Below are positions 2,943 to 62,944 of a stretch of DNA of 64,000 nt, piece by piece (position 1 is the stretch's first letter; each line of letters begins with the position of its first letter). The notes below the pieces were generated by a model that made no database searches, was not told the DNA's origin, and was given only the letters and a program-made list of their open reading frames with translations. Source of the DNA: Candidatus Sulfomarinibacteraceae bacterium (GTDB taxonomy: Bacteria > Acidobacteriota > Thermoanaerobaculia > Thermoanaerobaculales > Sulfomarinibacteraceae); the NCBI GenBank assembly GCA_963714895.1, contig CAVQQC010000020.1, positions 21,985-85,984 on the forward strand, given 5' to 3'. The position numbers and the translations under genes are program-made.

Positions 2943-2968
2943 GAATTCGGAATTCGGAATTCGGATTT
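2943..2968. repeat. Tandem heptamer array (GAATTCG)x3.5
   Basis: gaattcggaattcggaattcggattt begins 4 nt after the RND stop codon. Confidence 0.9.
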
Positions 2969-3553: not shown

Positions 3554-6509
3554 TCAGAAACGAACGCCGAGCGAGAACCGGAAGGTCCTCGGCGTCTGGT
3601 AGGAATTCTCGGACGTCGGCTCGCCGAAGCTGGAGCCGAAGTCCCAGTTGGTGCCCTGCACCGGGGTCTCGGTGAAGGGGTTGAAGGTATAGCTGCCGTT
3701 GGTGTCGAACACGTTGATCGTGGTGTTGCCGCCGTCCTGGCCCTGCTGGTTGAAGGCGTTGGTCAGGTCGAACTGGGCGAACAACTGCACGCCGGCGCCG
3801 ACGGTGAACCCGTAGTTGAGGGCGAAGTCGGTGCTCGAGATGTTGTCCCAGTGCTGCGAACCGGGTTCGGAGAAATAGTAGGTCGCGGTCGAGGGCGGGG
3901 TGATATAGCCCGGGTTGGTGACGTACGGCCTCACATCGACCGAACCGGTCCACGAGTAGTTGTTGCCGGTGTAGTAGTTGAACAACACCGATGCCGACAG
4001 GCTGTTGCGCTTGGTCGAAATGGCGTCCCACACCACCCAGGTGCGGAACTGGTTGCGCAGATCACTGGCGGTGTAGCCGTCGGGGTAGTTCCACGAAGCC
4101 TCGCCGTACTCGGGGTAGACCAGGGCGCCGCCGGTCACCGGACCGGAGGCCGAGGTCTCGCCGTCGAAGTTGCCCTTGGCGGTCGAGTAGGTCCAGCTGG
4201 CGCCGATGTCCCACCGGTCGCCGATGCGGTACTGGACGTTGGTGTGGAGACCGTTGTAGGTGCGGTTGTAGATGTTGCCGGTGTCGTTGGTGACGTACAT
4301 CTGGTCGATCTCACCGATGAAACCGGTGTCGACCGTGCGCCCCACCTCGGAGTTCTGGATGTAGAAGGACTTGGCATCGCGATAGACGTAGTCTACCCGG
4401 ACGACGCCGCGGTTACCCAGGCGCTTTGTGAACCCGAGAGACCACTCATCGGTGTAAGGCGAGGCCAAAGTACCGGGCGGAATCACCGGGGTGAAGCCGG
4501 GGAAGGAACCACCCGAGAAGCCGGGCAGCGTGTTGACACCACCATTGGCTTCGAACCAGTCGTTCCAGATCTGGATGGCGTCGTCCTGGCTCACCAGGTT
4601 CGAGTAGTCACCGGTGGAGTAAGCCTCGCAGTTGACGCAGGGACCTGTGTAATAAAGGAGGGTCCAGGCCGGCGATCCGGCGTCGGAAGCGTCGTTGGCG
4701 ACGCCCTGGGCCAGGGCCGCGGTGTACTGCGAGTAGGAGGCGTTGATGACGAAGTCGCCGTCGGCCTTGATGTCCCAGGCGACGCCGAGCCGCGGGGTCA
4801 GGCGCGAGTCGTTGGAGACCAAGGTGTTCGAGCCGTCGACGCCCTTGTTCCTGTCGTAACGGAGACCGACGTTGAACGACCAGTTGTTGTTGAGGCGCCA
4901 GGTGTCGTTGGCGTAGAGCGACTCGGTCGTGAAGTCGGAAGAGTTGGGAGGCCCGAAGATGGGGGTCCACCGGTAATAGGTCTGACGGTTGTTGACAGAT
5001 CGATCCGGCGCGAACACCGGGTAGATCGAGTTGTCAGGGAGGATGATGGCGGTGGAACCGTAGATGCGGAAGTCGGACCCCTGCTGGTGGTTGTCCTGGA
5101 TGCGGTAGTCGTGGAACTCGTCGTAACCGACCACCAGGTCGTGGGTGCCGAGCATTCTCACTGGTTAAGAAGTACGAGCCCTTGAGGTACCAGTTCTCGT
5201 TGTTGCGCTCCTCCTCGAGGCACTCGGGCGCCGAGCAGAAGGTCGGCGTGTGGTAGCGCGCGAACCGCGCGAGCGATCGAGCAGCAGGGTGCCGCCGATG
5301 ATGTCGGTGTAGGGCGAGCCCGAACCGACGCCGATCTGGTAGTTGCGCTCGGAGTAGAGACCTTCGAGGAAGAAGTTCTCGGTGATCACACCGGTGTAGT
5401 TGACCGACCACATGTCCTGCGGGTCCGAGCGGGCCGGGTTGAGGCTCGCCAGGTCGAGGATGGTGCCGAAGTCGGTGTTGTTCGAAGCCGACTCGATCTC
5501 GGCGTAGGAACCGACCACGCGGTGGTCCTTGGTGATCGACCAGGTGAGCTTGCCCTCGTAGCGCTGGTTGTCGTTGCCGTAGGTGTAGGGAATCAGGGTG
5601 TAGTCGGTGGTCCGCGACTCGGAGAACGAGGTGTCGCGGGCGGCCAGGAAGAACCACAGCGCGTCCTTGAGGATGTAACCACCGAAGGTGGCCTCGTAGA
5701 TGGTGCTGATGTCATCGACCGCATCGGGAGAGAGCTCGGTGCGCGAGACCCACTTGTCGTTCGACAGGTTGGCGCGGAACGAACCCGAGAACTGGTTGCC
5801 GCCGCTCTTGGTCAGCATGTTGATGACGCCGCCCTGGAAGCGGCCGTACTCGGCCGACACACCCGAGGTCGAGGTCGTGGTCTCGAGGACCGCGTCCTCG
5901 ATGTAGAGGTCGAGCGCCTGGCCGCGGATGTTCTCGTTGACCACGACGCCGTTGATCAGCCACAGGTTCTCGTACGACTGGGCGCCCGAGATGGTGATGC
6001 CGTTGATGCCGGCGCTGTTGACGCCGGGGACCAGCAGCGAGGCCGATTCGATGGTGCGGGTGATCGGCCAGTTTCTCCTGGAAGTCGAGGGGCACGGTGG
6101 TCTGGGCGACGATGTTCTGCGAGATGGTCTCGCCGGCGCCCACGACCTCGATCTCGCCCTCGAAGCTCTCATCCACCATCATCACGTCGAGGCGCTTGAC
6201 CTGCTGGTTGGAGACCTTGACGCCCTCGGCGGTCTGGGTCTTGAAGCCCTCGAGGCTGAAGGTCACGGTGTAGTCACCGGGAGCCAGGAACGGCGAGATG
6301 AAGTCACCGTTGGTCTGCGAGATGACGACCTTGTCGCCCTGCGACGCCGGTGAGCTGATCTGGATGGTCACACCCGGCAGGCCCTCGCCGTTGTACATGA
6401 TGGTGCCGCTGATGGACCCGGTCTGGCTGGTCTGCGCGGCGGCGGGAATCGCCGCCACGGCCACAGCCACGGCCAGCAACAAAATCAAATTACGTCGATT
6501 CATACCCAA
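3554..6509 (-). pseudogene. TonB-dependent receptor with N-terminal carboxypeptidase-regulatory-like domain (reading frame broken at least 3 times)
   Basis: The N-terminus (5712-6509 frame) has a signal peptide plus GSISGTIMYNGEGLPGVTIQ…GDYTVTFSLEGF (CarboxypepD_reg). The plug and barrel continue in the 5165-6172 frame, briefly in the 5034-5657 frame, then in the 3554-5161 frame. The protein ends in …FRFSLGVRF, an aromatic C-terminus typical of OM barrels. Shifts lie near 6070, 5280 and 5165. Confidence 0.85.
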
Positions 6510-6968
6510 TTCTCCTTACAAAAAATTTTGAACGAAAACGAAGAATGTCTTCCTCGCACGGATCCTCCTCCCTCCTGCGTCACCCTCCTTTCATCGTTCG
6601 AACAGCGGCAGCCGGACCCGATCTTCGGCTTCCTCCAACCGAATCCGGGTCGACGCCGCCCGTGGTTGCAACGTGGTGTTCTGGTGGTCGTTCGTCTTCA
6701 AGGAAAAAATCTCCTGCAATTTCCGTGCCCTGGGAGACACATCAACCCGGGATTGTCTTGATATTGAGACACCGAACCCAAAACCATCTCCGGGATCGAC
6801 TTTCCCTTTGAAAACAACAACTTCGGTGTGGAGCCGGTTCAGATCGCCGACGGGGTCACCTCGGGGGTGTCCCGTGGTGGAGGCAATCCACCATCCGGAA
6901 CATCCGAAATTTCGGACCCTCCGCCGGGAGGATGTCCGGTCTTCCGGACACGACGTGGTATCTCCGGA

Positions 6969-7586
6969 TTACTGGCCGAGGTCGAAGGGGATCTCGAGGC
7001 TCGACTCTTCGAGCTCGATGATCAGCTTCCACCGTCCCGGTTGGACCCCGCCCGCAACCGGAAAGACGAGCATGCCGATGCACAGCTCGCGCTGGTTGAC
7101 CCAGATGGCGTCCCGCGTCGACCCGGTCCCCGGGATGCGAAGGAAGTTGAGAACGCACTCCCGCTTGTCGCCCCGGGTGGCCTGAAGCGGCTCTGACGCC
7201 ACGGCCGCGCGGCGGAGCATGCTCTGCAGCTGCGGGTAGGCGTCGATGAACTCCTTCTGGGTCGGCAGCGGGATCCGCCGACCGTCGGGGGTTCGCACCG
7301 ACACATCGCTCAACTCGACCTCGATCGATTCCGACCGCTGACCGGTGAGCGCGACATCGATGATCAGCCACTCGTCACCAAGACTCGAGTCGGCGAATTT
7401 GTAACTGACGATGCCTTCGAGGTCCGCGCCGACCGTCCTCACCTGGGTGCGGCCGACCTGGGTCACGCTGGGCTTGACCGGTCCCGTGGCCTTCGAACCG
7501 TCCGAGCTGCTCGATCCGCATCCCGCGATCATCACCACGGTCGCGGCCCCGATGGCGATGTGCATCACGACCCTTCTCGTTTTCAT
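6969..7586 (-). CDS. Hypothetical lipoprotein
   Basis: MKTRRVVMHIAIGAATVVMIAGCGSSS is a lipobox signal peptide. A GGAGGTGG Shine-Dalgarno lies upstream of the ATG at 7586. I recognise no domain. Confidence 0.6.
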   Translation of the reverse strand: MKTRRVVMHIAIGAATVVMIAGCGSSSSDGSKATGPVKPSVTQVGRTQVRTVGADLEGIVSYKFADSSLGDEWLIIDVALTGQRSESIEVELSDVSVRTPDGRRIPLPTQKEFIDAYPQLQSMLRRAAVASEPLQATRGDKRECVLNFLRIPGTGSTRDAIWVNQRELCIGMLVFPVAGGVQPGRWKLIIELEESSLEIPFDLGQ

Positions 7587-7612
7587 GTCCACCTCCCGGT
7601 GTTGGCCTGCAC

Positions 7613-8875
7613 TCATTGACTGTAGCTCAAGAGCTCCTTGGCGATGGCGGCGTCGGGGTCATCCGGCGCCAGTAGGATGAAGCGTTCGAGGTAGGCGCGC
7701 GCAGACCCGGTGTCACCCTTGTTGAAGGCCGCCATCCCGAGGATGAAGATGGCCTTCGGTTCGTCGGGCCGCACCTTGAGCACGAGTTCCATGAGCCCCG
7801 CCGCCTCGTCGTAGAGGCCGGCGTCGTAATGCTCCACGCCGCGTTTGAAGAGCTCTTCGACCGCATAGTCGGGATCGACCTCCGCCAATTTCGCCGCCAA
7901 CTCCATTTCGACCGCATCGTCGCCGCGCGCCACGGCCATGTCGTAGGCCAGCCTCACGGCCAGCGCGTTGTCGGGCTCGAGCGCCAGCACCGCTTCGACC
8001 TCGCGCCGGGCGCACTCGATGTCACCGTCCTCTTTGCAGATCGCGCCCAGGAAGACGTGCGGCGGCACCAGCGTGGGGTCGACCGTCACCGCTTCCTCGA
8101 GGAGGGCCCTGGCCTTGGCACGGTCGCCCGCGCGGTAGACGTCGATCGCCTCGTTGTAGACGCGGCCGGCGGCCTCGGAGTCGACACCCGCGGTCTTGAG
8201 AGCGGCCGCCGCCTCTTCAGCGCGGGGGTCGCCGTCCTTGCGGTAGGCTTCGTAACGGATCTGCAGGGCACGCGCGTCGGATGCATCCAGCTCGAGCGCC
8301 TTTTCGGCGGCCGCCGCCGATTCGGCGAACTTGCCCTGCAGATAGTAGACCCCGGCGAGCCCGGCAAAAGGCGCCGCAAGGGTCGGGATCGAGCTCGGCC
8401 GCCTTGGCGTAGCGCTCGGCGGCGGTCTCGAGGTCGCCGGCGTTCTGCGCCTCGACACCCGAGTTGAAGACATCGGCCGCCTGTCCCCGGAGCATGGCGG
8501 CGGGATTCGCCGGACCTGTGCCGATCCGGCGGGCCGCATCACGAAGGTCCGCTGGGTGGAACCTCCCACGTTGGCCCGCACCTTTTCCACCAGCACCTCA
8601 TAGCCTTCCTTTTCGAGCTTGTAGGTGTAGGTGAAGGTGGCATTGCTGTGGCCGACCATGAAGCGGCCCTTCTTGTTGCTGGTGGCGGTGTCCTCGTAGT
8701 TCACGAGGTCCGCGGTGGTGATGGTCACCTGGACCCCTTCGATGGGGTTGCCCTCCACGTCGACGACCTTGCCGGCCACCCGGCCGGCGGCCTGGGCGGA
8801 AGCATCGGCCGCCGCCAACACCGCAGCCGCACATACGCACACAACGACGACGATTTCCCGAAACTTCATCATCAC
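7613..8875 (-). pseudogene. Secreted CarboxypepD_reg-like domain + TPR-repeat protein (two local frameshifts)
   Basis: Signal peptide, then GRVAGKVVDVEGNPIEGVQVTIT…, then multiple TPR-like helices. The central segment is read correctly only in the 8217-8495 frame (…GDLETAAERYAKAAELDP…). The start overlaps the VWA gene stop (ATGA). Confidence 0.7.
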
Positions 8876-14186: not shown

Positions 14187-14534
14187 CTACCCGGGGTTGG
14201 CCTGGACCATCTCCGCCATGATCCGGTCGGCGTGGGCGGCATCGATCGACACGAAGGCGACCCCGACGTCGAAACCGCCCTCCTTGGCGGGCTTTTCCCA
14301 CACCACCCGACCGATCGCCTCCACGACCTCGTGGTCGACGGTGAGCATGAGTCGCAGATAGGAATCGATCCCCAATGACTCGATGCTGTTGATCATGAGA
14401 CCGCCGGGCCCCATCTGGCGGGCGGTGGCCATCTCGCGTTGTTCCGCCGGACCGATACGGTGAATCAGGACCACATTTTCGGTCGGGATTCTCGGAAACT
14501 GACGCCGTGTGGGTGTGAGTTCGTCCTCAAGCAT
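14187..14534 (-). CDS. PilZ domain-containing protein
   Basis: RRQFPRIPTE…GGLMINS…GRVVW…GVAFV matches the RxxxR … D/NxSxxG-type c-di-GMP-binding fold. Confidence 0.65.
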   Translation of the reverse strand: MLEDELTPTRRQFPRIPTENVVLIHRIGPAEQREMATARQMGPGGLMINSIESLGIDSYLRLMLTVDHEVVEAIGRVVWEKPAKEGGFDVGVAFVSIDAAHADRIMAEMVQANPG

Positions 14535-14585
14535 GCAGATACCTCACGCCCCATTGTACCGCGAAGCCGCTCACGAAGCCCGGCA

Positions 14586-14758
14586 ATTTCGGATTTCGGA
14601 TTTCGGATTTCGGATTTGACCTTTCCCCACCGTCGATCTACGAGGTGGAGGGGGTGGTGAAATCCACCTACCCGCTACCCGAATTGGTCATCACGCAACG
14701 AGGCGGGACGAGCGATGGAAAATCCGAAATCCGAAATCCGAAATCCGAAATCCGAATT
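14586..14758. repeat. Inverted pair of heptamer arrays: (ATTTCGG)x4.5 at 14586-14618 and (AAATCCG)x5.5 at 14720-14758
   Basis: The arms are perfectly complementary and could form a stem of about 33 bp around a 101-nt spacer. The right arm lies inside the 3' end of the ABC ATPase ORF. Confidence 0.9.
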
Positions 14759-15491
14759 CAGAGGAGGTGGGTCTGTCCTCGACGACGACCCCGTCGCGGA
14801 TCTCGACCATGCGGTTGGCGCGTCCGGCCAGCGCCTTGTCGTGGGTCACCACCACCAGGGTCCTGCCCTGTTTCCAGAGACCGTCGAGCACGCTCATCAC
14901 GTCCGAGCCCGACCCGGTGTCGAGGTTGCCGGTGGGCTCGTCGGCGAGCACGATGTCCGGCTCCATGGCCAGGGCGCGGGCGATGGCCACCCGTTGCATC
15001 TGCCCACCCGAGAGCTCGGTGGGTTTGTGCTCCACGCGATCCGCCAGGCCGACGGACTCGAGTTGCTCGAGGGCCCTTCGCCGCCGTTCTTTGCGGCCGA
15101 CGCCGCCGAAGAGAAGCGGCATCTCCACGTTTTCGAGGGCACTGAGTTGCGGCAGGAGGTTGAAGTTCTGAAAGACGAAGCCGACCCGCCGGTTGCGGAT
15201 GTCGGCCAACTGGTCGCGGTCGAGACCGGACACCGCCTCGCCCCCCAGCCGGTACTCACCATCGGACGGCGTGTCGAGGCAGCCGAGAAGGTTGAGCAAC
15301 GTCGACTTGCCGGAACCGGAGGGGCCGACCACCGCCACGAACTCCCCGCCCTTGACCACGAGATCGATCCCGCGCAGCGCCTCGACCTTGATCTTGCCGG
15401 TGTCGTAGACCTTGGTGATCGCGCTCATGTCGATGATGTGGCCGTTCGACTCCGCGACCCCGTTCTTCTTCTTGCCCAGTGACCAGTTCAT
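14691..15491 (-). CDS. ABC transporter ATP-binding protein (MacB/LolD-type)
   Basis: Walker A GPSGSGKST, signature LSGGQMQRVAIARAL, Walker B IVLADEPTGNLD. The last ~30 aa (…SSEFGFRISDFGFRIFHRSSRLVA) are encoded by the heptamer array. Confidence 0.9.
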   Translation of the reverse strand: MNWSLGKKKNGVAESNGHIIDMSAITKVYDTGKIKVEALRGIDLVVKGGEFVAVVGPSGSGKSTLLNLLGCLDTPSDGEYRLGGEAVSGLDRDQLADIRNRRVGFVFQNFNLLPQLSALENVEMPLLFGGVGRKERRRRALEQLESVGLADRVEHKPTELSGGQMQRVAIARALAMEPDIVLADEPTGNLDTGSGSDVMSVLDGLWKQGRTLVVVTHDKALAGRANRMVEIRDGVVVEDRPTSSEFGFRISDFGFRIFHRSSRLVA

Positions 15492-15532
15492 CGAGAACTC
15501 CGATTCTGATTGCAGACACGTGCGACTTCATA

Positions 15533-15642
15533 ATTTCGAATTTCGAATTTCGAATTTCGGATTTTTCCGCTACCCAACCGACCACGATACGGAACGGGGC
15601 TGGACCGGAAATTCGAAATCCGAAATCCGAAATCCGAAATAG
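15533..15642. repeat. Inverted pair of heptamer arrays: (ATTTCGA)x3-(ATTTCGG) at 15533-15565 and (GAAATCC)x4 at 15608-15642
   Basis: Located in the intercistronic gap between the permease and the ATPase, with a 42-nt spacer. Most arm mismatches become G-U pairs only in minus-strand (sense) RNA. Confidence 0.85.
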
Positions 15643-15651
15643 CGGTGGCCA

Positions 15652-16914
15652 TCACTCGTACCTCAGGGTTTCTGCAGGGTCCACCGTCGCGGCTCGTCGC
15701 GCTGGGAAATAGCCGGCGAGAATGCCGATGCCGCCGAGGATGGCGGCGGTCGCCGCCGCGATCTGCCACGACAGCGTCGGTTTACCGAGGAACTCCATCG
15801 CCTGGTTGCCCTCCACCGGGACCATGCCGAGAAGCAGGATCATCACCACCGCGAGGGCAAGACCGAGGGCGCCCCCGACCAGGGTGTAGGAGAGCCCCTG
15901 CAGGACAAAGGGACCGGTCACCCACCCGCGGCGCGCGCCGAGGGCCATCTGCACCCCGATCTCCCGCGTCTTCTCCTTGACGACCGCGTACATGATGTTG
16001 GCCACCCCGATGCCGCCGATGAGCAGGGTCAAGGCCCCGATGATGCCGAGAAACGCCTGCAACCCGATCATGATGTTGCCCATGACCTTGGCGCCCTCGA
16101 CGGTGTCCCACAGTCCGGTCACCTGTTCGTCGGTTGGATCGAAACGGAACTTGGCCGCCAGGGCCTGGTTGAACTGTTCGCGGGCCACCGGCATGTCCTC
16201 GGCGGTCCGCGCCTTGAAGACGATGTTGGTGAGCCGCTGCCGCCCGAACTGCGCCGCGAAGGTGGTGATGGGGATGACCGAGCCGTCTTCGTCGGGCCCC
16301 TTGTAGGTGCCCATCTGCATCTTGTGCTGGAGAACGCCGATCACCAGGTACGGTACACGGTCGACGAACATGGTTTTCCCCACCGGGTCCTGATCGCCGA
16401 AAATCTCTTTGGCCAGCGCATCTCCGAGGAAGATCACCCGCCGTTTCTCGCGTTCGTCGTTGGCGTTGAAGAACCGCCCGCCGGCCTGTGCGAAGTGGTG
16501 GCGTATCTCGCCGTACTCCCAGTTGGCGCCGGTCACCCTTCCGGTGATGGTGGTCGTGCCGTAGGTCATCGAGCTCGACCAGCTGGTCAACTCACCGATG
16601 ACGCCCGAAGCCGCGGTCATGCGGCCCCGGAGGTAGGTGATGTCGTCCATCCGCGGACGGATCGGACGACCTTCGGGCAACCCCTGCCACACCTTCGAGG
16701 TCTCGTCGGGCCACCACACCGCGATGTTTTCGCCCATGCCGCGGCGGCCCTTCATCAGTTGGATTTTGAGGCCTTCGCCGAAGGACAGCAGCATGATGAT
16801 CGCCACGGTCCCCCAGGCGATGGCGGCGACGGTCAAGGTGGCCCGCTTGCGTTGCAGCGATGAGGCCTTGACGAAGAGCGCGCCCACAACCCGCCAATCG
16901 AGGAGACTCATCAC
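15652..16914 (-). CDS. ABC transporter permease (FtsX/MacB-type)
   Basis: 420 aa. N-terminal TM, a large periplasmic domain, and a C-terminal FtsX 3-TM bundle (…KEKTREIGVQMALGARR…AGYFPARRAATVDPAETLRYE). Confidence 0.9.
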   Translation of the reverse strand: MMSLLDWRVVGALFVKASSLQRKRATLTVAAIAWGTVAIIMLLSFGEGLKIQLMKGRRGMGENIAVWWPDETSKVWQGLPEGRPIRPRMDDITYLRGRMTAASGVIGELTSWSSSMTYGTTTITGRVTGANWEYGEIRHHFAQAGGRFFNANDEREKRRVIFLGDALAKEIFGDQDPVGKTMFVDRVPYLVIGVLQHKMQMGTYKGPDEDGSVIPITTFAAQFGRQRLTNIVFKARTAEDMPVAREQFNQALAAKFRFDPTDEQVTGLWDTVEGAKVMGNIMIGLQAFLGIIGALTLLIGGIGVANIMYAVVKEKTREIGVQMALGARRGWVTGPFVLQGLSYTLVGGALGLALAVVMILLLGMVPVEGNQAMEFLGKPTLSWQIAAATAAILGGIGILAGYFPARRAATVDPAETLRYE

Positions 16915-16952
16915 GTCCTCCCCGTCGTTGTCGGGTTCGATTGGCGGGTCTC

Positions 16953-17066
<114 letters not shown>

Positions 17067-17082
17067 CATTCGATGCTCTCCT

Positions 17083-18317
17083 CTACAGTTTCATCGCCAC
17101 GACGGGGTCGAGCTGGGAAGCGCTTCGTGCCGGGAAGTAACCGGCCATCAGACCCACCAGACCGAGAATCGACGCGGTCATGATCGCGAGACCCGGCGAC
17201 AGCGTGGGCAGACCGACATACTCCTCGAGATTGGTGGGGAACGCCGAGCAGATCGCGAACGAAATGCCGAGACCGATGGCACCACCGATGGCGGTCAGGC
17301 ACATCGTCTCGAGCAGGAACTGACCGAGGACGGCGCGACCGCGTGCGCCGAGCGCCATCTTGATCCCGATCTCTCGGGTGCGCTCCTCGACCACGACATT
17401 CATGATGTTGGAGACGCCGATGCCGCCGACGATCAGGGTCAGCACGCCCATGATGCCGAGGAAGATCTGGAAACCGAGCATGAAGGCGTCCATGAAGACG
17501 AACATCTCGGTGGTGTCCCACAGCTGGATCGCCTGGTCGTCGTCGGGATGGAATCGCAGGCGGCGGCTGAGGGCGGTTCGCACCTGGTCGTTCAGCGCTC
17601 TCGTTGAGGTCAGGGTGACGGCGCCTTGTAGATGAAATTGTCGACATACTTCTGTCCGGTGAGGGCGCGGAAGGTCGACTCGGGGACGATCATCTTGGAA
17701 TGGTCGCGCCCCGAGTAGGACGAGTCCTGCTCTTTGGGCACGAGCACGCCGACCACCAGGAACGGCGACCCGTGGATCATGACCGTCTCGCCGACCGCGT
17801 CCTGGGTGCCGAACAGATCGTCGGCCAGCTCGTTGCCGACAAAGACCACGCGGCGGCGCTGCTCGACATCGATGGTCGTTGATGAACCGGCCGCCTACGG
17901 CCGGGATCATATTGCGCATCACGCCGTAGGCCGGCGACACCCCGGACATCGTGCACCGATCGCTGCCGGTCGCCGTAACGGGCGATCAGGCTCTGCGAGT
18001 ACTCGCTCGAGATGCCGTCGATGAGCGGCGACCTGCGCCTCGAGATAGTCGATGTCCTCCTCCATCATCCGCATCCGGCGTCCCTTGCCGAGACCCTCGA
18101 AGGTCATCGAGGTCCGCATCGGCCAGGCGATGACGATGCGGTCGCCGAGACCGGCGACGCTTTTGATCATCTGCCGGTGAAGCCCGTGGCCGAAGGCGAG
18201 CAGGAGGCTCACCGCCACCGTTCCCCAGATGATGCCGAAGGTCGTCAGGAAGGTGCGCAGCTTCTGGCTCCACAGATCGCGCGCCAGCTGCCGGAAAAAG
18301 GAACCGAAGCCGATCAT
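17083..18317 (-). pseudogene. Second ABC transporter permease (FtsX/MacB-type), frameshifted at least twice
   Basis: The N-terminus MIGFGSFFRQLARDLWSQKLRTFLT… is in the 17919-18377 frame. The middle part (…VFVGNELADDLFG…HGSPFLVVGVL…) is in the 17610-17849 frame. The FtsX C-terminus (…EERTREIGIKMALGARG…AGYFPARSASQLDPVVAMKL) is in the 17083 frame. Confidence 0.85.
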
Positions 18318-18335
18318 CCAGACGACTCCGCGTCT

Positions 18336-18444
<109 letters not shown>

Positions 18445-18445
18445 A

Positions 18446-19600
18446 TCAGCTGATTTCCTTCGGAGGCCTCTGAACGACCTCGTCGCCCTCCGACAACCCG
18501 GAGACGATCTCGACATTGAGGCCATCGGAGAGGCCGAGCTCGACGTCGATCTTGCTCGGCTCGGCCTCGGGGCCGTCACCCGGGAACTCGACAAAGGTCT
18601 GATCGTCTTCGAAGAGCACGAGACGCTCGGGGATGAGCACGATGTCGGTTTTTTCGCGGATCACGACATCGGCGTTGGCCGAGTAACCGGCGCGGAGGAT
18701 CACCTCCTGATCCGGGTCGAGCTCGATCTCGACATCGAAGAGGGTCGCGCCCTCGCTCTTCTGAGCCTGTGGCGCGATGCGCTGACCAGCGCCCCGTGAC
18801 GATGTCGTCGGGCAGGGCGCCGACCTTGATCCGGCACGGCATCCCGACCGAGATCTTGCCGACGTCGATCTCGTCCACGGTCCCCTTGAAGATCAGATCG
18901 CCCATATCGGCGACCGAGGCGAGTTCGGTGCCCGGCTGGTAGGAGGTCAGCGGGACCACCGGGTCACCGACGTTGACGGCCCGCGACAGCACGGTGCCGC
19001 TGGCCGTCGTGCGGATGAATGTCTCGACCTCGGTGTCGCCCCGGTCACCTCGACCACTTCGGGTCAGCTCGCGGTTGTCGAAGGCCTGCTGGCGGGCGAT
19101 CCGGGCCAGCTCGTAGATCTCGCGCAGGGCGTCGAGATCGCCCTTCGACATCAGTCCGTCTTGGTGCAGCTCGTCGCCGCGCTCGTAGTCCGCCTTGGCC
19201 TTGAGGAAGCTGGCCTCCGACGACTGCACTCCGTGATCGACGTTGAGGAGCTCCTGCGGGGTCGGGTCGGGTGCGATTTCGAAGAGTGCGATCACCGGCA
19301 CGGACCGTATCGCCGACCTCGACAAAGCAGCGCTTGACGATGCCCGAGATCTTCGACTTGACCTGGAACTTCTCGCGCGGTTCGATCTGACCCACCGCCA
19401 GCGCCTTCTCGGTGATCGAGCCGATCTCGGCCTCGACAGAGTGTTGCCGTTTTCGTCGGTGCCGCGCGACCCGACCCACGCGTAGATGCCGCCCGCCGCG
19501 CCCGCCACCACGATCACGATCACGAGAAGTCTCAGTACCTTTGCCAGTCCTGCCTCCGTCGCTCGAGCCGACCCACCACAAGTACGCAGGTTGACGAGCG
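18446..19600 (-). pseudogene. HlyD/MacA-family efflux periplasmic adaptor, frameshifted at least 3 times
   Basis: Fragments lie in three frames: a TM anchor (AKVLRLLVIVIVVAGAAGG), a lipoyl-like segment (…KFQVKSKISGIVKRCFVEVGDTVRAGD), a coiled coil, a beta-barrel (…DLIFKGTVDEIDVGKISVGMPCRIKV…) and a C-terminus (…ILRAGYSANADVVIREK…). The start codon is not resolved. Confidence 0.75.
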
Positions 19601-19765
19601 AGAAGTTCTCGGGAAAACGCCCCGGGTTCAGTTTCCGTTTCCCCGATTTATATGAGATGCAACAGACCGCAGAGAGGTTTGCATGGGGGCAGGTGGCAAG
19701 AGGCACGCGGCGGACAAGGGAGACAGGGCGAAAGGGAGACCGCCCGCCTGAAGGTCGGGTGCTGC

Positions 19766-24893: not shown

Positions 24894-24928
24894 AGTTTTG
24901 AGTTCTTAGTTTTGAGTTTTGAGTTTTT
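24894..24928. repeat. Tandem heptamer array (GAGTTTT-like)x5
   Basis: agttttgagttcttagttttgagttttgagtttttt starts 13 nt after the nrdJ stop. Confidence 0.85.
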
Positions 24929-24942
24929 TCAGAGCATCCACG

Positions 24943-24967
24943 AGCCCCCGGACTTCGGGGGCTTTTT
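24943..24967 (+). terminator. Intrinsic terminator after nrdJ
   Basis: agcccccg-gactt-cgggggct stem-loop followed by TTTTT. A short (ATTTCGG)x2 array follows at 24968-24988. Confidence 0.75.
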
Positions 24968-24996
24968 CAATTTCGGATTTCGGATTGCTACAGGCC

Positions 24997-27370: not shown

Positions 27371-27393
27371 TGTAACCGCGCGGCTTCGCCGCG

Positions 27394-27425
<32 letters not shown>

Positions 27426-40373: not shown

Positions 40374-40454
40374 GATACCGGTACCGGTTGTCGGAGAGCC
40401 ACCGACCCCTGCAAATGAACGCAAAGGCGCGAAGCCGCTCACCTATTCTGATGG

Positions 40455-40979
40455 TCCACAGATCACCCAGATGACCCAGATATCGGACCGAACGCAGAGA
40501 CGCAGAGGCGCAGAGGGATCCTTCCTGCGGATTGTCCGGCGAGGTCCCGGCCGCACAGGGCGGCCGGAGACCGTCGGGCCGAGACATCGCTCCGAACGCG
40601 GACGTTCGTCACGATGTCTCGACCCGATGGCCTCGCCTCTCACGTGCTCAGAAATGTCGGTGGAATCCGAGCGCCCACGCTCGAGCAGGCACGACAACGG
40701 CGGATCCGACGCGCCCCTGGCGCGTCGGCCGGGGAAGCGTCCGTCCGTGAGGGATGCTTGCATCCATCGCGGACGGGCACTTTCCCGGGAGCCGGCGATC
40801 CCGAGATCGCCGGCCATCCGCCGGGCCACTCCAGGCAATCATGCTCACGCCGGCACCGCGCCTTTGCGTCTTTGCGTCTTTGCGTTGATTTTCCGTGCCT
40901 GGGCTTTGTGACGACTTCGTGTCTTGGTGTCTTCGTGGTTGCGACGAAACCCGGCTCCGTGTCCTCTGTGCCTCTGTGG
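40455..40979. repeat. Composite structured intergenic region: short tandem arrays flanking a ~350-bp core of consecutive GC hairpins
   Basis: Left side: (CCCAGAT-like)x3 at 40455-40483 and (ACGCAGAG)x3 at 40489-40514. Right side: (CTTTGCGT)x3 at 40862-40887 (roughly the inverse of the left array), (GTGTCTT)x3 at 40914-40938 and (CCTCTGTG)x2.5 at 40957-40979. Core hairpins include gagacatcg…cgatgtctc, ccgacgcgcc-cctg-gcgcgtcgg and ccggcgatc-ccga-gatcgccgg. Confidence 0.8.
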
Positions 40980-41017
40980 TTTGCCCGGTGCGATGGTGTC
41001 TGGCGGGCCCGGCCGCG

Positions 41018-45413: not shown

Positions 45414-45422
45414 GAAAACGTT

Positions 45423-45524
45423 ATGAGTTTTGAGTTTTGAGTCTTGAGTTGAGGACACTTCTCACCTGCACGGTCAATCGTGGTGAAAGTGAACTCAAAA
45501 CTAAAAACTCAACACTCAAAACTA
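45423..45524. repeat. Imperfect inverted pair of heptamer arrays: (GAGTTTT)x4 at 45423-45453 and (AAAACTC-like)x4.5 at 45491-45524
   Basis: Fills the trpA-rsmA intercistronic gap with a 37-nt spacer. The right arm reaches the trpA stop codon. Confidence 0.85.
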
Positions 45525-46319
45525 CCTCTTGCAGGCTTCGGCGAGGGTTGCGGCGAAACGCTCGACCTCGTCGGCGAGCTCGTCGCAATCCCCGAGGGCG
45601 CCGATGCGGCTGACAATGGCGGACCCGACCACCACGCCGTCGGCCTTCGCCGCCACCTTCGCCACCTGCTCCGGCGTGGAGATCCCGAAACCTACGGCCA
45701 CCGGCAGCCGCGAGGCCTTGTGCGCGGTCTTGATGTTCCGCTCGAGCTCGGCATCGAGGTCCTGCCGGGCGCCGGTGACGCCGGTTCGCGAAACCAGGTA
45801 GAGGAACCCCCCGCCGAAACGAGCCGCAGCCTTCATTCGTTTGCGGCCGGATGTCGGGGTGACCAGCATGATCAGGTCGAGACCGGCCGGAGCGAGGATC
45901 TGCTCGAACGGCTCCATTTCTTCTGCGGGAACATCGGTGAAAAGCACGCCGTCGACACCGGCAGCCGCCGCATCGGTGGCGAATTGTTCGAGACCGTAGC
46001 GGATGACCGGGTTGGCATAGGTGAAAAGCACGATCGGGATGTCGACCGACTGCCGGAGGGCGGTGATGGTGGCGAGCACTCCGGCCAGGGTGGTCCCCGA
46101 TGCCAGGGCCCTTTCGGCGGCGCGTTGATTGGTAGGGCCGTCGGCGATCGGGTCCGAAAAGGGCACTCCGAGTTCGACGATGTCGGCCCCCGCCCGTGCG
46201 AGCGCGTGAACGATGTCGACGGTTCGTTCAAGCGTCGGGTCCCCGGCCGTGACATAGGGAATGAAGGCCGCTCGTTTTTCGTGGTCGACGGTTTTCATGG
46301 CGTCGCGCAACCGGCTCAT
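45522..46319 (-). CDS. trpA: Tryptophan synthase alpha chain
   Basis: …[10 protein letters not shown]…[21 protein letters not shown]…GFGIS… 265 aa, with a 4-nt overlap with trpB. Confidence 0.95.
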
Positions 46320-47512
46320 AACGAGCCCCTCTCGACCAACGCCACCTCGCCGAGGTCCTTGTCCCCGCGTCCCGAGAGGTTGACGAGAACGTTGCTGCCG
46401 AACGTCATCGACGGCGCCACTCTCGCCGCGTAGGCGACGGCGTGGGCCGATTCCAGGGCCGGGATGATCCCCTCGGTCTCGGCCAGCAGATGAAAAGCCG
46501 CAATCGCGGAGTCGTCATCAACACAGGTATAGGTCACGCGACCGCTCTCCTGCCACTCGACGTGCTCCGGTCCGACCGCGGGATAGTCGAGGCCTGCCGA
46601 CACCGAGTGGGTCCGCAGCACCTGGCCATCGCCGTCCTGGAGCACCCGGGTCCGGGTGCCGTGGAGAACCCCCGGCGCCGCGCTGCCGGTGAACCGCGCA
46701 GCGTGCTCTCCCGGTTCGAGGCTTCTTCCGCCGGCCTCGACCCCCGCCAGCGCTACCGATTCGAACGGAATGAAGGCGGTGAACATCCCGGCCGCGTTCG
46801 AGCCTCCCCCGACACACGCCACGACGAGGTCCGGCAGCGTCCTTGTCGCCTTTTTGAACTGCGCCATCGCCTCCCGTCCTATCACCGTCTGAAAATCCCG
46901 CACCATCATCGGATAGGGGTGGGGGCCGAGCACCGATCCGAGGATGTAATGCGTGGTATGGACGTTGGTGACCCAGTCGCGCAGCGCCTCGTTGATCGCG
47001 TCCTTGAGAGTGCACGAGCCCGCGTCCACGGCAACGACCTCCGCGCCCATGAGCTTCATCCGCACCACGTTGAGCGCCTGGCGCCGCATGTCTTCCGAGC
47101 CCATGTAGACCCGGCACTCGAGACCGAGCAGGGCGGCCGCTGTCGCCACCGCCACCCCGTGCTGGCCGGCGCCGGTCTCGGCGATCACTCTCCCCTTGCC
47201 CATTTCGTGGGTCAGGAGGGCCTGCCCGAGGGCGTTGTTGATCTTGTGCGCCCCGGTGTGGCACAGGTCCTCGCGTTTGAGCCAGATGCGGGCGCCGCCG
47301 AGATGAGCCGACAACCGCCGCGCCTGATACAGCGGGGTGGGCCGGCCCACGTAGTGGGTCAGGAGCTCATCCAGCCGCGCCTGGAATCCCCGGTCGCGCG
47401 ACGCCTTGCGAAAACTCTCCTGGAGCTCCGCCAGGGGGGCCATCAAGGTCTCAGGAACGAACCTGCCGCCATAGTCGCCGAAATACCCACGGGCGTCGGG
47501 GAGCTTTTTCAT
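46316..47512 (-). CDS. trpB: Tryptophan synthase beta chain
   Basis: …[16 protein letters not shown]…[16 protein letters not shown]…[10 protein letters not shown]… 398 aa. Confidence 0.95.
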
Positions 47513-47544: not shown

Positions 47545-47643
47545 CGAGTTCTGAGTTCTTAGTTTTGAGTTATCCCGATCCATCGGGATGCTCCCGGGCG
47601 GGGCGATGGAAATTCAAAACTCAAAACTCAAAACTCAAAACTG
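47545..47643. repeat. Imperfect inverted pair of heptamer arrays: (GAGTTCT/GAGTTTT)x4 at 47545-47573 and (AAAACTC)x4.5 at 47609-47643
   Basis: Located between the PD40 lipoprotein stop and the trpB start, with a 35-nt spacer containing cccgat-cc-atcggg. Two of three arm mismatches are G-U compatible only on the minus (sense) strand. Confidence 0.85.
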
Positions 47644-47653: not shown

Positions 47654-48676
47654 TCAGGGTCGCAACTGCTCGATCACTTCTGCGCTCACCCACCAGATGT
47701 CCGAACTGCCCTGTCCGGGACGGGTGGAGAGATCGAGCAGCTCGGTGATCGGCCGGCCGGTCAGCGGGAGACCGGCCTCTTCGTCAGCTCGGGAAGACAT
47801 GAAAAAGAGGTATGTGCCGTCGGGCGACAGCGAGGCCGACCACTCGCGGCCGACCGGTTGGTTGATGGTCGGGCCCAGGTTGATGGGCTCGGACCAGGTG
47901 TCATCGTCGCCACGAAAGACCACGAAGTAGTCGACCCCACCTAATCCGTCCTCGCGGCCCATCGCCGGCACGATCGCAAAGGACTCGTCGGGGGCGACGA
48001 AAACGTTGAACCTGTTCGTACCGCAGTTCACCTGCGGTGGCAGGAGTTCGGGTTCGGTGTAGACCCCGTCGACGAAACGCGAGCGGTAGGTCGAGGACAC
48101 CCGGTCCTCCCCCTCGCGGGTGAAGTACAGGGTGCCGTCGGCGGTGACTGACGGATAGTACTCGGGAGCGTCGGAGTTGACGGGCGGCCCGAGGTTGTAG
48201 GGTTCGCCCCACGCATCGCCCTCCCTGTCCATCACCCAGATGTCCTGGTAGACCCACCCCGGTTTTTCCTCTTGCCCCGGCTGCGGCCGGGTGGAGAGGA
48301 AGAAGAACCTCTGGCCATCGGCGGAAATCGCCGGCTCGATGTCCAGATAGCGACCCGAAAAGGGCGCCACCTCCGGCTCGCTCCAGACGCCGTCGACCTG
48401 GTGCGCAACCATGATCATGGTCCTGTCGCCAAGGGTGACCGAAAAGTAGAGCTCTTCACCGTCCGGTGTCATCGCGAGATCGCGGGTCGCGAGCCCGGTG
48501 GAAACGACGCCCGGCGCGAAGAGCCGTGGTTCGAGGCCGGGTGGTTCCTGGCCGAGGTACGGGCCGCGCATTTCGGGCAATGCCTGCGCGAGCCCGCCTC
48601 CGGTATCGTCGAATGACATCGGTGAACAGGCCGCGAAGACGAGACACAGACCGGCGGCAAAGATCCGTTGTGACAT
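47654..48676 (-). CDS. PD40/TolB-like beta-propeller lipoprotein embedded in the trp operon
   Basis: GAGGAGGA Shine-Dalgarno plus ATG 48676. MSQRIFAAGLCLVFAACS lipobox. Repeated …PDGEELYFS…, …ADGQRFFFLS…, …ADGTLYFT…, …PDGTYLFFMS… blades. Confidence 0.8.
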   Translation of the reverse strand: MSQRIFAAGLCLVFAACSPMSFDDTGGGLAQALPEMRGPYLGQEPPGLEPRLFAPGVVSTGLATRDLAMTPDGEELYFSVTLGDRTMIMVAHQVDGVWSEPEVAPFSGRYLDIEPAISADGQRFFFLSTRPQPGQEEKPGWVYQDIWVMDREGDAWGEPYNLGPPVNSDAPEYYPSVTADGTLYFTREGEDRVSSTYRSRFVDGVYTEPELLPPQVNCGTNRFNVFVAPDESFAIVPAMGREDGLGGVDYFVVFRGDDDTWSEPINLGPTINQPVGREWSASLSPDGTYLFFMSSRADEEAGLPLTGRPITELLDLSTRPGQGSSDIWWVSAEVIEQLRP

Positions 48677-48711
48677 GAAATCCTCCTCATCCGGATCTAC
48701 GGGAGAACGCC

Positions 48712-49309
48712 TCAGCGGGTTGCCGACCGGGCGTTGTCGATGAACCGCCGGATCTTCGCGTGATCCTTGACGCCCGGTGCAGCTTTCGACGCCGGATGAC
48801 ACATCGACCAGATACGGCCGAGTCGCACGAACGGCATCGGCGACATTTTCCGGAGTGAGACCGCCCGCGAGACCGAAACGCAGACCTGGCGGTCCGTCCG
48901 CCAGACACTCCCACGCCCACGCAAGGCCGTCTCCCGCGCCGGGATCGAAAAGGGGGAGACAGATCCCTGCAAGATGGGCGACCCGTTCCCAGTCAACGTC
49001 GGGACCGACCTTGACCCGGCGAATCACCTGCCGCCCGAGCACTTCGAGAAACGAGTCGGGTTCGTCGCCGTGGAGTTGGACCCAGTCGAGCCCGAGCTTT
49101 TTCCGAATCTGGAGCACCTCAGATAACGGCGCGTCGAGAAAGACCCCGACGGTTTCGGCCCCCCGTACGTCACGGATCCAATCCGCCCGTTCCGGCACCA
49201 GCATCCGAGGGGTCCCGGGTCGAAAAACGAACCCCAGAAAATCGGCGCCGGCGGCGACGGCGGCTTCGGCGTCGTCGGGTCGGGTGATGCCGCAGATCTT
49301 GATCAGCAT
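48712..49309 (-). pseudogene. trpF: Phosphoribosylanthranilate isomerase, one frameshift near the 3' end
   Basis: MLIKICGITRPDDAEAAVAAGADFLGFVF…LAGGLTPENV…VDVSSGVES, then …APGVKDHAKIRRFIDNA…* in the 48712 frame. The uncorrected frame runs on into the lipoprotein gene. Confidence 0.9.
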
Positions 49310-49340
49310 GTGGCCCTTCACGACGTCGGCCGCCGGAATC

Positions 49341-50147: not shown

Positions 50148-51182
<1,035 letters not shown>

Positions 51183-51186
<4 letters not shown>

Positions 51187-51821
51187 GTTTCGTCCCGATT
51201 TCGGATTTCGGATTTCGGATTTCGGATTTTCGCCCACTCATCTCTGACAGGAAGGTCGGCAAGGCGCAGAAAATTGGCGAGGAGGTGGCGGCCGTGGTGG
51301 CAGAGGTAGGACTCCGGGTGGAACTGGACGCCGTAGTGGGGACGGTCGCGATCCCGGAGACCCATGATGGTGCCGTCGGTCGTCCATGCGGTGAGTTCCA
51401 ACGACCCCGGCAGAGAGTCTTTTTCCACCACCAGCGAGTGGTACCGGGTCGCCTCGAACGGGTCCGGCAGACCCTCGAAGAGCCCGGTGCCGTCGTGGTG
51501 CACCGGCGAAGTCTTACCGTGCACCGGCTCCGAGGCCCGCACGACCCGGCCTCCGTGGACAGCCGCCAATGCCTGGTGGCCGAGACAGATCCCGAGAAGA
51601 GGCAAGGAGGTAGCGGTCCGCACCATCTCCATCGTGACGCCGGCGTCCTCAGGCACCCCGGGGCCGGGCGAGATGACGATGGCGTCGGGTTTCAGGGCCA
51701 GCAACTCACTCACAGTCGACGCGTCGTTGCGCACCACCTCGATCGGCGTGAGGCCGACCTCCGCAAGCTCCTGCACCAGGTTGTAGGTGAAGGAGTCGTA
51801 GTTGTCGATCATCAGGATCAT
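51183..51821 (-). CDS. trpG: Anthranilate synthase component II (glutamine amidotransferase)
   Basis: MILMIDNYDSFTYNLVQ…LLGICLGHQAL…GVQFHPES… The last ~25 aa (…KIRNPKSEIRNPKSEIRNRDET) are encoded by the heptamer array at 51198-51230. Confidence 0.9.
51198..51230. repeat. Tandem heptamer array (ATTTCGG)x4.5 at the trpG/trpD junction
   Basis: atttcggatttcggatttcggatttcggatttt lies within the 3' end of the trpG ORF. Confidence 0.9.
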
Positions 51822-51839
51822 CTCGCCCCTCCACCATCG

Positions 51840-52020
51840 GAATTTTGAATTTTGAATTTTGAATTTTGAATTATCGGGCGAATCCAGGCTGTGAAAGGCA
51901 CCCCGGGCCGGCCACCGCAGTTCCGATGTCGAAATTCGGAAATGCCACCAATCACCACCTGAAAACAGCTCTGAGGAGCGGACCGAAAAATCCGAAATCC
52001 GAAATCCGAAATCCGAATTT
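51840..52020. repeat. Two heptamer arrays bracketing the trpE-trpG gap: (GAATTTT)x4.5 at 51840-51873 and (AAATCCG)x4.5 at 51987-52020
   Basis: The arms are non-complementary and flank a 113-nt unique core. The right array ends 2 nt before the trpE stop. Confidence 0.85.
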
Positions 52021-55093: not shown

Positions 55094-55127
<34 letters not shown>

Positions 55128-55962: not shown

Positions 55963-55998
55963 AAAATTCGAAATCCGAAATTCGAAATCCGAAATTTC
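55963..55998. repeat. Tandem heptamer array (AAATTCG/AAATCCG)x5
   Basis: Lies immediately downstream of the stop codon of the HMA gene, which is on the minus strand. Confidence 0.85.
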
Positions 55999-62917: not shown

Positions 62918-62944
62918 GTTTCGGATTTCGGATTTCGGATTTTC
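62918..62944. repeat. Tandem heptamer array (TTTCGGA)x3.5
   Basis: gtttcggatttcggatttcggatttt lies 20 nt after the metallopeptidase stop. Confidence 0.9.

Follow-up and report, generated by a model that had tools for sequence, protein, structure and literature searches.

Among the repeats described from bacterial intergenic regions, the closest counterparts of the arrays treated here are the GGGAATC heptamer arrays of Xanthomonas, which mostly consist of 4 units, are 89-93% intergenic and, on average, have the upstream open reading frame (ORF) 28 nt and the downstream ORF 160 nt away (Rehm et al. 2015, PMC4692102). They are mostly situated in co-directional gaps (convergent 16%, divergent 7-8%), form 70-75 nearby inverted pairs per genome and differ in length and sequence when a given gene pair is compared among sister species, and the heptamer unit of Nostoc is GGGGAYT (PMC4692102). 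The same paper cites Mrazek et al. 2007 for the excess of heptamers and for a polymerase-slippage hypothesis, and states that detailed literature on heptameric repeats did not exist. In the present study, a 64,000-nt stretch of contig CAVQQC010000020.1 (the window, i.e. the whole stretch of DNA analysed) from an uncultured Thermoanaerobaculia-like acidobacterium was found to carry tandem heptamer arrays, mostly as inverted pairs, at nearly every junction of a MacAB-like transporter operon and of the trp operon. These arrays very probably belong to the known but poorly understood class of intergenic heptameric simple sequence repeat (SSR) arrays. Heptamer excess has been known since 2007 and, to our knowledge, neither its function nor its generating mechanism has been established. 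As a whole explanation, arrays that are homogenised at the DNA level and act as intercistronic RNA hairpins, comparable to repetitive extragenic palindromic (REP) sequences and bacterial interspersed mosaic elements (BIMEs), are given a probability of about 0.5.

The class assignment is based on abundance, position and variability. At a single threshold, 17 tandem arrays of period 7 and three of period 8 were detected in the window, and none of periods 4-6 or 9-12. The total came to 18-19 heptamer arrays per 64 kb, about one every 3.5 kb, and included seven inverted pairs. For (GGATTTC)3 with at most three mismatches, 30 matches were obtained in the window against 0.00 expected from shuffles. 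The unit family in the window and its relatives comprises GGATTTC, GAATTTC, GGAATTC, GAATTAG, TGAATTT, GAGTTTT and GAGTTCT. Like the arrays of Xanthomonas and Nostoc, those found here have a 7-nt unit, a mode of about four units, an intergenic location nearer to the upstream ORF, mainly in co-directional gaps and seldom in divergent ones, and nearby inverted pairs able to form stem-loops (7 in the window, 19 in the Sulfomarinibacteraceae group). Their position is fixed and their length and sequence vary, as could be followed in the four gaps, named A to D, of the transporter operon in the related loci L119-L122, L126 and L127. The units also resemble that of Xanthomonas in consisting of a G run, an A/T run and a C (GGGAATC versus GGAATTC and GGATTTC). 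New in this case is the unit family GGATTTC, GGAATTC and GAGTTTT in a Thermoanaerobaculia-like lineage; a literature search for the unit strings found no paper in the collection searched that treats GGATTTC or AAATCCG as a repeat. Unlike in Xanthomonas and Nostoc, several unit types are present and may be mixed within one pair, and the G/T-rich arm strictly precedes the A/C-rich one. The longest G-tract of GGATTTC, GGAATTC and GAGTTTT is GG, short of three or more Gs per unit, and G-quadruplexes, which had motivated the Xanthomonas study, are therefore impossible for these units.

Array length was assessed at loci that had not been chosen for their arrays (the window and L119-L122), where 39 of 60 arrays measured 28-37 nt (4-5 units) and one was longer, some of the shortest entries being chance matches. 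The pairs typically flank a variable, GC-rich spacer of 35-115 nt. Because all six frames of the heptamer arrays are free of stop codons, ORFs continue across the arrays, which makes it easy to miscall gene ends. Of 160 arrays, 143 were placed outside called ORFs, and most of the remaining 17 are ORF-extension artefacts.

In the transporter operon, Pfam analysis assigned the minus-strand ORFs to an HlyD-like protein (18576-19706), FtsX (17083-17949, FtsX1), a permease with MacB_PCD and FtsX domains (15652-16914), an ABC_tran ATPase (14691-15491) and PilZ (14187-14534). An inverted heptamer pair is present in four out of four gaps (Table 1). Two of these pairs had been reported in a first-pass annotation of the window, which had also placed pairs in the trp operon and proposed that long stems form on the transcribed strand of both operons. 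This description was confirmed. The arms of gap D are 100% complementary over 32 nt (14586-14617 versus 14720-14751) with 102 nt between them, and folding of 14580-14765 gave -95.4 and -95.2 kcal/mol on the two strands. The spacer of this gap is largely different in the close relative L126. Around the shorter loop of gap C, the arms at 15532-15564 and 15608-15640 are 92% complementary over 25-26 nt and lie about 42-50 nt apart; folding of 15526-15648 yielded -52.0 kcal/mol for the minus strand, a value reached by 0 of 200 shuffles (z = -5.4), and -40.1 kcal/mol for the plus strand (z = -2.65). A gap C arm is in addition 91% complementary over 33 nt to an arm of the gap D pair. Two further hairpins of the same operon, 16949/17034 in gap B and 18333/18411 in gap A, had not been listed before. 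Promoter-like or terminator-like sites in the operon gaps did not exceed shuffle expectation; the gaps held no promoter-like site, and no terminator-like site on the minus (sense) strand.

The trp genes, also on the minus strand, are trpE (52023-53510), trpG (51183-51821), trpD (50140-51180), trpF (47654-49321), trpB (46316-47512) and trpA (45522-46319). Four junctions carry arrays, as pairs between trpE and trpG, between trpF and trpB and after trpA, and as a solo array between trpG and trpD. The recurrence of the design at 45.4 and 47.5 kb, announced in the first-pass annotation, was thus found again, with arms at 45420/45492 and 47546/47607.

The annotation had gone further and had interpreted the mismatches as favouring the sense RNA, because three of the four differences in the 15.5-kb pair (gap C) and two of the three in the 47.5-kb pair are G-U wobbles on the minus strand. 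The counts themselves were correct: the four differences of the former are transitions, three giving G-U on the minus strand and one on the plus strand, and the third difference of the latter is a transversion. The 45.4-kb pair likewise favours the minus strand. If hairpins of the sense transcript were under selection, G-U on the sense and A-C on the antisense strand would be expected. Both strands were folded for the six clearest pairs, and arm-versus-arm duplex energies were calculated for every inverted pair with an assigned direction (n=36). Two gene callers based on GC content at third codon positions (GC3) were dropped for this purpose, as they picked shadow ORFs, and a codon log-odds caller was used instead. 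Twelve pairs favoured the sense strand, 13 the antisense strand and 11 neither, with a mean difference of +0.14 kcal/mol (binomial p 1.0, Wilcoxon p 0.98). With direction taken from Pfam or deposited gene calls only, the split was about 6 to 6. In this sample of 36 pairs, as distinct from the whole genome, the asymmetry of G-U versus A-C showed no correlation with the direction of transcription, which is the outcome that the annotation had itself named as speaking against its proposal.

The individual hairpins of the transporter operon gave the same picture. Duplex energies in gap C were -40.0 kcal/mol in sense versus -28.7 in antisense, and gap D was neutral between the strands. In the two remaining gaps, pairing is better in antisense: gap B with -15.8 kcal/mol in sense versus -17.6 in antisense, and gap A, by 17 kcal/mol, with -2.7 versus -19.9, i.e. 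pairing on the antisense strand only. The orthologous gap C hairpin of L126, a contig with 92% nucleotide identity to the window and a 99% identical permease, is reversed (-41.0 sense versus -48.1 antisense, against -38.7 versus -30.8 for the window in the same comparison). Its 5' arm holds two GG and two GA units facing four CCG units in the 3' arm, and its two mismatches are for this reason A-C in sense and G-U in antisense. The wobble asymmetry thus flips between near relatives. Mismatches occur because the two arms are often built from related units of one family, distinguished by transitions, and the strand that receives the G-U depends on which arm has the more G/T-rich variant. Relative to the direction of transcription the mismatches are strand-symmetric, and there is no evidence yet of selection on RNA rather than on DNA. 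Selection on sense-transcript hairpins, as read from the mismatches, is therefore extremely unlikely, and asymmetry in two or three hairpins should not be taken as evidence of RNA-level selection.

In the Sulfomarinibacteraceae group, 19 of 19 inverted pairs, whichever strand is read, begin with the G/T-rich arm and end with the A/C-rich arm; in loci of Verrucomicrobiota and Planctomycetota the order is often reversed. Arrays up to 40 nt past a stop codon were G/T-rich in sense in 54 of 54 cases, and arrays preceding a start were A/C-rich in 30 of 33. The rule that G/T-rich arrays follow stops was rejected as independent transcript-level evidence, since it results from the arm order of the pairs together with the filling of gaps by arrays. 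The 5' arm usually begins no more than about 12 nt from the stop codon, with which it often overlaps. Between the end of the 3' arm and the next start there are 10-50 nt, so that a GGAG-type ribosome-binding site remains free. In 347 kb of acidobacterial sequence, co-directional and convergent gaps held 2.27 and 2.25 arrays per kb of gap, and divergent gaps 0.5, a 4.5-fold depletion.

A role of the DNA itself was weighed against these rules. The arrays could be AT-rich, cruciform-prone islands to which gyrase or nucleoid proteins bind, or could insulate transcription units from one another topologically, roles that have also been proposed for BIMEs. The strand-symmetric mismatches would agree with this, as would the AT-rich arms in a genome with 65% GC (the value of the window) and the length of three units, 21 bp or two helical turns. 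That the arrays are depleted in divergent gaps and set in at stop codons suggests a connection with transcripts or translation and not with topology alone, and a DNA-level role was judged the least probable of all explanations considered.

The history of the gaps was compared in nine relatives (L119-L127), whose orthologous gaps are not phylogenetically independent. Gene order through PilZ is the same in L119-L122 and L124, and L123 and L125 have the transporter genes with no PilZ downstream. In relatives with 71-83% permease identity, gaps A-C measure 2-166 nt, several of them only 2-7 nt, and carry no heptamer arrays; a hexamer array is found in one of these relatives and octamer arrays in another. 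In relatives with 85-99% protein identity, gaps measure 32-293 nt (most 75-293), and nearly all hold heptamer arrays, of different units. For gap A, these are GAATTCG/CAAAACT in the window, GAATTCG/TTCAAAA in L119, a solo GAATTAG array in L120, a perfect GGATTTC/GAAATCC pair in L121, GAATTCG/CTCAGAA in L122 and ATTTCGG/AAATCCG in L127. Gap occupancy is kept across species, and units, copy numbers and spacers are replaced quickly, in relatives that are 92-95% identical. The two arms of a pair change together: partner arms were more complementary (0.858) than non-partner arms of the same lineage (0.760, permutation p = 2e-4), and at least 95% complementarity was reached by 8 of 23 partner pairs versus 17% of non-partner combinations. 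In gap B of L120, the variant unit AATGAGG of one arm has its mirror counterpart at the corresponding position in the other.

One case bears on how arms and spacers spread. In L127, at 1461-1570 and 2830-2940, (ATTTCGG)4, a spacer CCCCCCGCCCACCCGTCGTGRAAGCGGGG... and (AAATCCG)4 occur in two adjacent gaps (A and B). When the spacer motif was searched in all 127 comparison loci, it was found only in the orthologous gap B and in gap A of L127. This suggests a local duplication or gene conversion between arrays rather than a dispersed mobile family. The copying of the gap B element with its spacer into gap A, and the arm order fixed within the lineage as for inherited termini, could also be expected of a mobile palindromic element of the miniature inverted-repeat transposable element (MITE) or REP kind, with heptamer arrays as terminal inverted repeats. 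Against it, the spacers of different copies are unrelated, the conserved spacer is confined to the orthologous and neighbouring gap and fits local gene conversion better, solo arrays are common and no target-site duplications were seen at the arrays. A MITE was rejected on the same grounds, its likeness lying in arms that resemble inverted termini. (GGATTTC)4 had no match in 2.9 million viral contigs; a phage origin or vector was rejected on this result. A mobile element is very unlikely.

REPs are mobilised by REP-associated tyrosine transposases (RAYTs, IS200/IS605-like) and serve as mRNA 3'-end stabilisers or as modulators of translation near the stop codon. The arrays share with enterobacterial and pseudomonad REP/BIME elements their extragenic location, high copy number, similar stem size, intercistronic or 3' sites and avoidance of promoters, and a REP-like stabiliser or modulator role offers the best functional analogy. 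A REP is a unique 20-40-bp imperfect palindrome with a conserved GTAG or CGTC head (PMC3733652). The arms here are by contrast tandem 7-mers with no conserved core, and neither a GTAG nor a CGTC head is present at the arm ends. A Pfam scan of 29 window proteins gave no transposase, although an association with RAYT would need the whole genome. The REP/BIME-like interpretation of the first-pass annotation can thus be kept for the intercistronic stems, the avoidance of divergent gaps and the complementarity of partners, and loses the mismatch bias toward sense RNA.

According to the proposed explanation, arrays would arise by slippage in a favoured 7-nt register, and their uniformity would come from templated copying, at the DNA level, between palindrome arms or neighbouring arrays. 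Such homogenisation would explain both the complementarity of arms and the lack of strand bias. As the arrays are located inside operon transcripts, they would fold in the mRNA, into stems of 25-35 bp directly behind the stop codon. Stems of this size were predicted for well-matched pairs, 7 of 23 pairs falling short. RNase III acts on near-perfect double-stranded RNA stems of about 20 bp or more. The stem could then be a barrier to 3'-to-5' exonucleases or a target of double-strand-specific RNase III, and the stability of neighbouring cistrons, possibly also their translation, would be uncoupled. Since the G/T-rich arm comes first, no U-tract follows the stem on either strand, and it should not terminate transcription. 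An intrinsic terminator was rejected for this reason, the 3' arm being A/C-rich on both strands. The role in RNA punctuation, drawn from analogy with REPs, is put forward tentatively. Any mechanism would have to account for blocks of about 32 nt, the G/T-first order, stop-proximal onset, avoidance of divergent gaps and co-evolution of arms without strand bias. With operons punctuated at nearly every junction, and with graded orthologous loci in which units are swapped and position, length and arm order stay fixed, the lineage is a clean natural system in which the question is experimentally tractable.

Some single-base details of the transporter operon are affected by the assembly. As assembled, the ATPase ORF lacks a stop ahead of the array and continues through 14720-14756, which formally makes the 5' arm of gap D intra-ORF. 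Because of this read-through (...EFGFRISDFGFRIF..., 14691-14790, minus strand) the ORF is longer than its orthologues, with 266 aa versus 241-250 aa. In the +1 frame a TGA lies exactly at the array boundary, L126 having TCT TGA TTTCGG where the window has TCT GAA TTCGG, and the stop was probably lost by a 1-nt homopolymer assembly error. The FtsX1 gene (17083-18330, minus strand) shows at least four frameshifts compared with an intact 409-aa orthologue, and the HlyD-like gene (18446-19706, minus strand) at least one compared with an intact 365-aa orthologue; the amino-acid sequences are otherwise conserved. These frameshifts look like long-read assembly indel errors rather than signs of pseudogenes.

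Several observations weigh against the hairpin explanation. Solo arrays make up about 40% of the window's arrays, and 7 of 23 pairs are at most 0.76 complementary, no better than random partners. In gap D of L122, eight GAATTCG-type units face about 19 CATCCTG units, the two arms being unrelated. The poorly complementary pairs, this gap and the frequency of solo arrays make a strict stem requirement unlikely. The spacers have no consistent structure: the gap B spacer alone folded better than shuffles (z = -3.8), the other six giving z values of -0.25 to -1.45. In addition, most comparison loci were chosen for a (GGATTTC)4 array, which biases unit frequencies; the direction of many of the 36 pairs, those outside annotated operons, came from the crude codon log-odds caller; and indel errors in the window assembly make single-base details uncertain, including the missing ATPase stop.

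Imperfect pairs and solo arrays would be expected if the arrays were a non-functional by-product, arising by slippage of the replicase in a favoured heptamer register, expanding where tolerated, in the 3' flanks of genes, and purged only where promoters or coding regions would be damaged, with palindromes formed by template switching. The fast turnover of units, copy numbers and spacers, the transporter junctions of distant relatives without heptamer arrays and the absence of strand asymmetry agree with such an origin, as does the slippage hypothesis of Mrazek et al. in the form quoted in PMC4692102. Free slippage does not predict a length sharply bounded at 28-37 nt, and the invariable arm order, the occupation of the same gaps across species despite unit change and the identity of (GGATTTC)4 in many phyla also speak against it. 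A mere by-product is considered rather unlikely, but is the chief competitor of the proposed explanation.

The distribution of exact (GGATTTC)4 was surveyed with one genome per species, for this unit only, and at least 118 stretches of 34-72% GC were found. The matches listed include Acidobacteriota, Verrucomicrobiota, Planctomycetota, Chloroflexota and Bacteroidota, as well as Pseudomonadota, Cyanobacteriota, Gemmatimonadota, Cloacimonadota and lineages of the candidate phyla radiation (CPR). Inverted pairs and further heptamer units are present at many of these loci. A comparable case is the TAACTGA repeat, which Beggiatoaceae, cyanobacteria and Bacteroidetes have in common and for which a post-transcriptional role and Csp, S1 or CsrA as readers have been proposed (MacGregor 2015, PMC4679880). 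TAACTGA sets are direct repeats of 2-6 copies, with one indirect repeat, mostly just upstream of starts, where they replace the Shine-Dalgarno sequence (PMC4679880). As with these and the cyanobacterial short tandemly repeated repetitive (STRR) heptamers, one intergenic tandem heptamer is common here to distant phyla with no evident transfer mechanism; unlike TAACTGA, the present arrays are placed behind stops, mostly as inverted pairs. Multicopy elements of Geobacter metallireducens, numbering dozens per genome, are likewise made of four or five heptanucleotides in tandem (GGACCGG; MTYCTGA) and were proposed to be regulatory (PMC2700814). Unlike the arrays here, their units are GC-rich, occur also within genes and were not described as inverted pairs behind stops.

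A shared unit raises the question of a shared reader. In one scheme, a hypothetical oligonucleotide-binding (OB)-fold protein of the cold-shock or S1-like kind would read the G/T-rich array in single-stranded form, one heptamer per monomer, or a CsrA-like protein would bind through GGA; the complementary array would be a built-in competitor, and protein level or temperature would decide whether the hairpin forms. The fixed 7-nt register, the narrow number of 4-5 units, the GGA core of many units (GGATTTC, GGAATTC, GGAATTA, GGATTGC, GGATGGC) and the occurrence of the same unit across phyla point in this direction, and Bacillus CspB attaches to direct heptamer repeats at one protein per heptamer and favours T-rich sequences, as reviewed in PMC4679880. 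GAGTTTT-type units lack GGA, however, CsrA sites are normally more than 7 nt apart, and a reader that recognises a given sequence fits poorly with units that change freely from species to species at the same site. A protein platform of this kind is quite improbable. Only slightly better placed, and still improbable, is a cross-phylum punctuation code in which 4-5 G/T-rich heptamers behind the stop would be the OB-fold or CsrA-like platform, the A/C-rich block its competitor, and protein level or temperature would decide whether a 30-bp stem arises between the cistrons and undergoes processing. If true, a shared reader would explain the length limit, the arm order and the identical (GGATTTC)4 across phyla including CPR.

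Table 1. Heptamer arrays, hairpin arms and host operon in the window (TRF, Tandem Repeats Finder; sense refers to the transcribed genes)
Feature	Coordinates	Strand	Basis or remark
Host operon HlyD-like, FtsX1, MacB-type permease, ABC ATPase, PilZ	14187..19706	-	Pfam
Gap D (ABC ATPase-PilZ), sense 5' arm (GGATTTC)5.3, TRF (AAATCCG)5.3, G/T-rich	14720..14756	-	TRF, 100% matches; inside ATPase ORF tail as assembled
Gap D spacer, 102 nt, GC-rich, includes ORF stop 14691-14693	14618..14719	-	Fold z = -1.45, not significant
Gap D, sense 3' arm (GAAATCC)4.6, TRF (ATTTCGG)4.6, A/C-rich	14586..14617	-	TRF, 100% matches
Gap C (MacB permease-ATPase), sense 5' arm, 3 ATTTCGG + 1 ATTTCGA units	15608..15640	-	Begins ~11 nt past stop; TRF (GAAATCC)4.7, 96%
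Gap C, sense 3' arm, 1 AAATCCG + 3 AAATTCG units	15532..15564	-	Ends ~40 nt before ATPase start, GGAG free; TRF (AATTTCG)4.7, 96%
Gap B (FtsX1-MacB permease), sense 5' arm (GAATTCG)4.4	17034..17064	-	TRF, folding
Gap B, sense 3' arm (TTCAAAA)4.3	16949..16982	-	73% complementary; antisense pairing slightly better
Gap A (HlyD-like-FtsX1), sense 5' arm (GAATTCG)4.9	18411..18444	-	Begins 1 nt past stop
Gap A, sense 3' arm (CAAAACT)4.4	18333..18365	-	Pairs with partner on antisense only
Hairpin downstream of trpA, (GAGTTTT)-type arms 45492-45523 and 45420-45449, 42-nt spacer	45420..45523	-	TRF, folding
trpF-trpB hairpin, arms 47607-47642 (GAGTTTT in sense) and 47546-47571	47546..47642	-	TRF, folding
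trpE-trpG hairpin, sense arms GGATTTC 51988-52017 and AAAATTC 51837-51872, 73% complementary	51837..52017	-	TRF
Solo A/C-rich array, sense (AAATCCG)4.7, trpG/trpD junction	51193..51229	-	TRF; trpG ORF traverses array
Solo G/T-rich array (GAATTCG)3.3	2943..2965	+	3 nt past stop codon, convergent gap
Two direct G/T-rich arrays, (GAGTTTT)4.9 and (ATTTCGG)2.4	24894..24986	+	Either side of terminator-like hairpin 24942-24967
Solo array, A/C-rich in sense, (GAATTCC)4.4	27392..27425	-	21 nt upstream of acyl-CoA-binding protein gene
Solo G/T-rich array (GAATTCG)4.7	55094..55126	+	Overlaps stop of asparaginyl/aspartyl/lysyl-type tRNA synthetase gene
Solo array, G/T-rich in sense, ATTTCGG/ATTTCGA alternating	55964..55995	-	6 nt past stop of minus-strand gene 56002-56319
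Solo G/T-rich array (TTTCGGA)3.4	62919..62942	+	21 nt past stop codon

Upstream of pilZ, a TACAAT/TATAAT box is situated at about 14553-14558 on the minus strand, 18-19 nt upstream of the start and downstream of the 3' arm of gap D. Its flanks are conserved, and it is kept at the same position in all close relatives (L119-L122, L126). pilZ may have its own promoter; if this is real, the gap D hairpin would consequently stand at the 3' end of the transporter transcript. The place of the gap D 3' arm is taken by (CATCCTG)n in L122 (7169-7290, about 19 units) and in L120 (about 7350-7380), a sequence without complementarity to the 5' arm; loci L004, L011 and L059, from Verrucomicrobiota and Anaerolineae, have related arrays of the AATGCAG type. 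In the trp operon, within 51183-51237 on the minus strand, the trpG ORF ends only after the (AAATCCG)4.7 array, its GATase domain stopping at residue 185 of 212. The 555-aa ORF upstream of trpB (47654-49321, minus strand) combines a TrpF (phosphoribosylanthranilate isomerase) domain at residues 8-185 with PD40 beta-propeller repeats and may be a real fusion or a frameshift artefact.

A classical terminator-like hairpin, GAGCCCCCGGACTTCGGGGGC followed by TTTTT (T5), was found at 24942-24967 on the plus strand, downstream of a TSCPD-domain gene. Octamer arrays are present as well: GCAATGAG in 6.9 copies (53566-53620) faces CTCACTGC in 3.1 copies (53721-53745) as an inverted pair, the 575-nt gap 40443-41017 holds arrays of CGCAGAGG, GCGTCTTT, CTTCGTGT and CCTCTGTG within 40459-40978, and AACGTTAG in 3.8 copies at 55696-55726 overlaps a stop codon. 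Gap C of L125 contains GCGTCTT-type octamers that are related to those of the window. In L099, from Acidobacteria metagenome-assembled genome (MAG) SZAS-13, about 1.7 kb without called genes (5894-7645) carries at least 14 heptamer arrays in alternating orientation, of the types ATTTCGG, CAATCCG and GATTGCG, predicted to give a train of consecutive hairpins.

The window shares 78% DNA identity over 7.5 kb with the Candidatus Sulfomarinibacteraceae MAG L097 (Acidobacteriota), where the site orthologous to 55964-55995 also has an array, with different units. The sources of the permease homologues name Acidobacteriota, Thermoanaerobaculales and Holophagae. An Rfam scan of the window gave no match in any gap; its sole match was the Acido-Lenti-1 small RNA at 63928-63973 on the minus strand, full-length and with 59.6 bits (gathering score 37), which is consistent with the acidobacterial origin.

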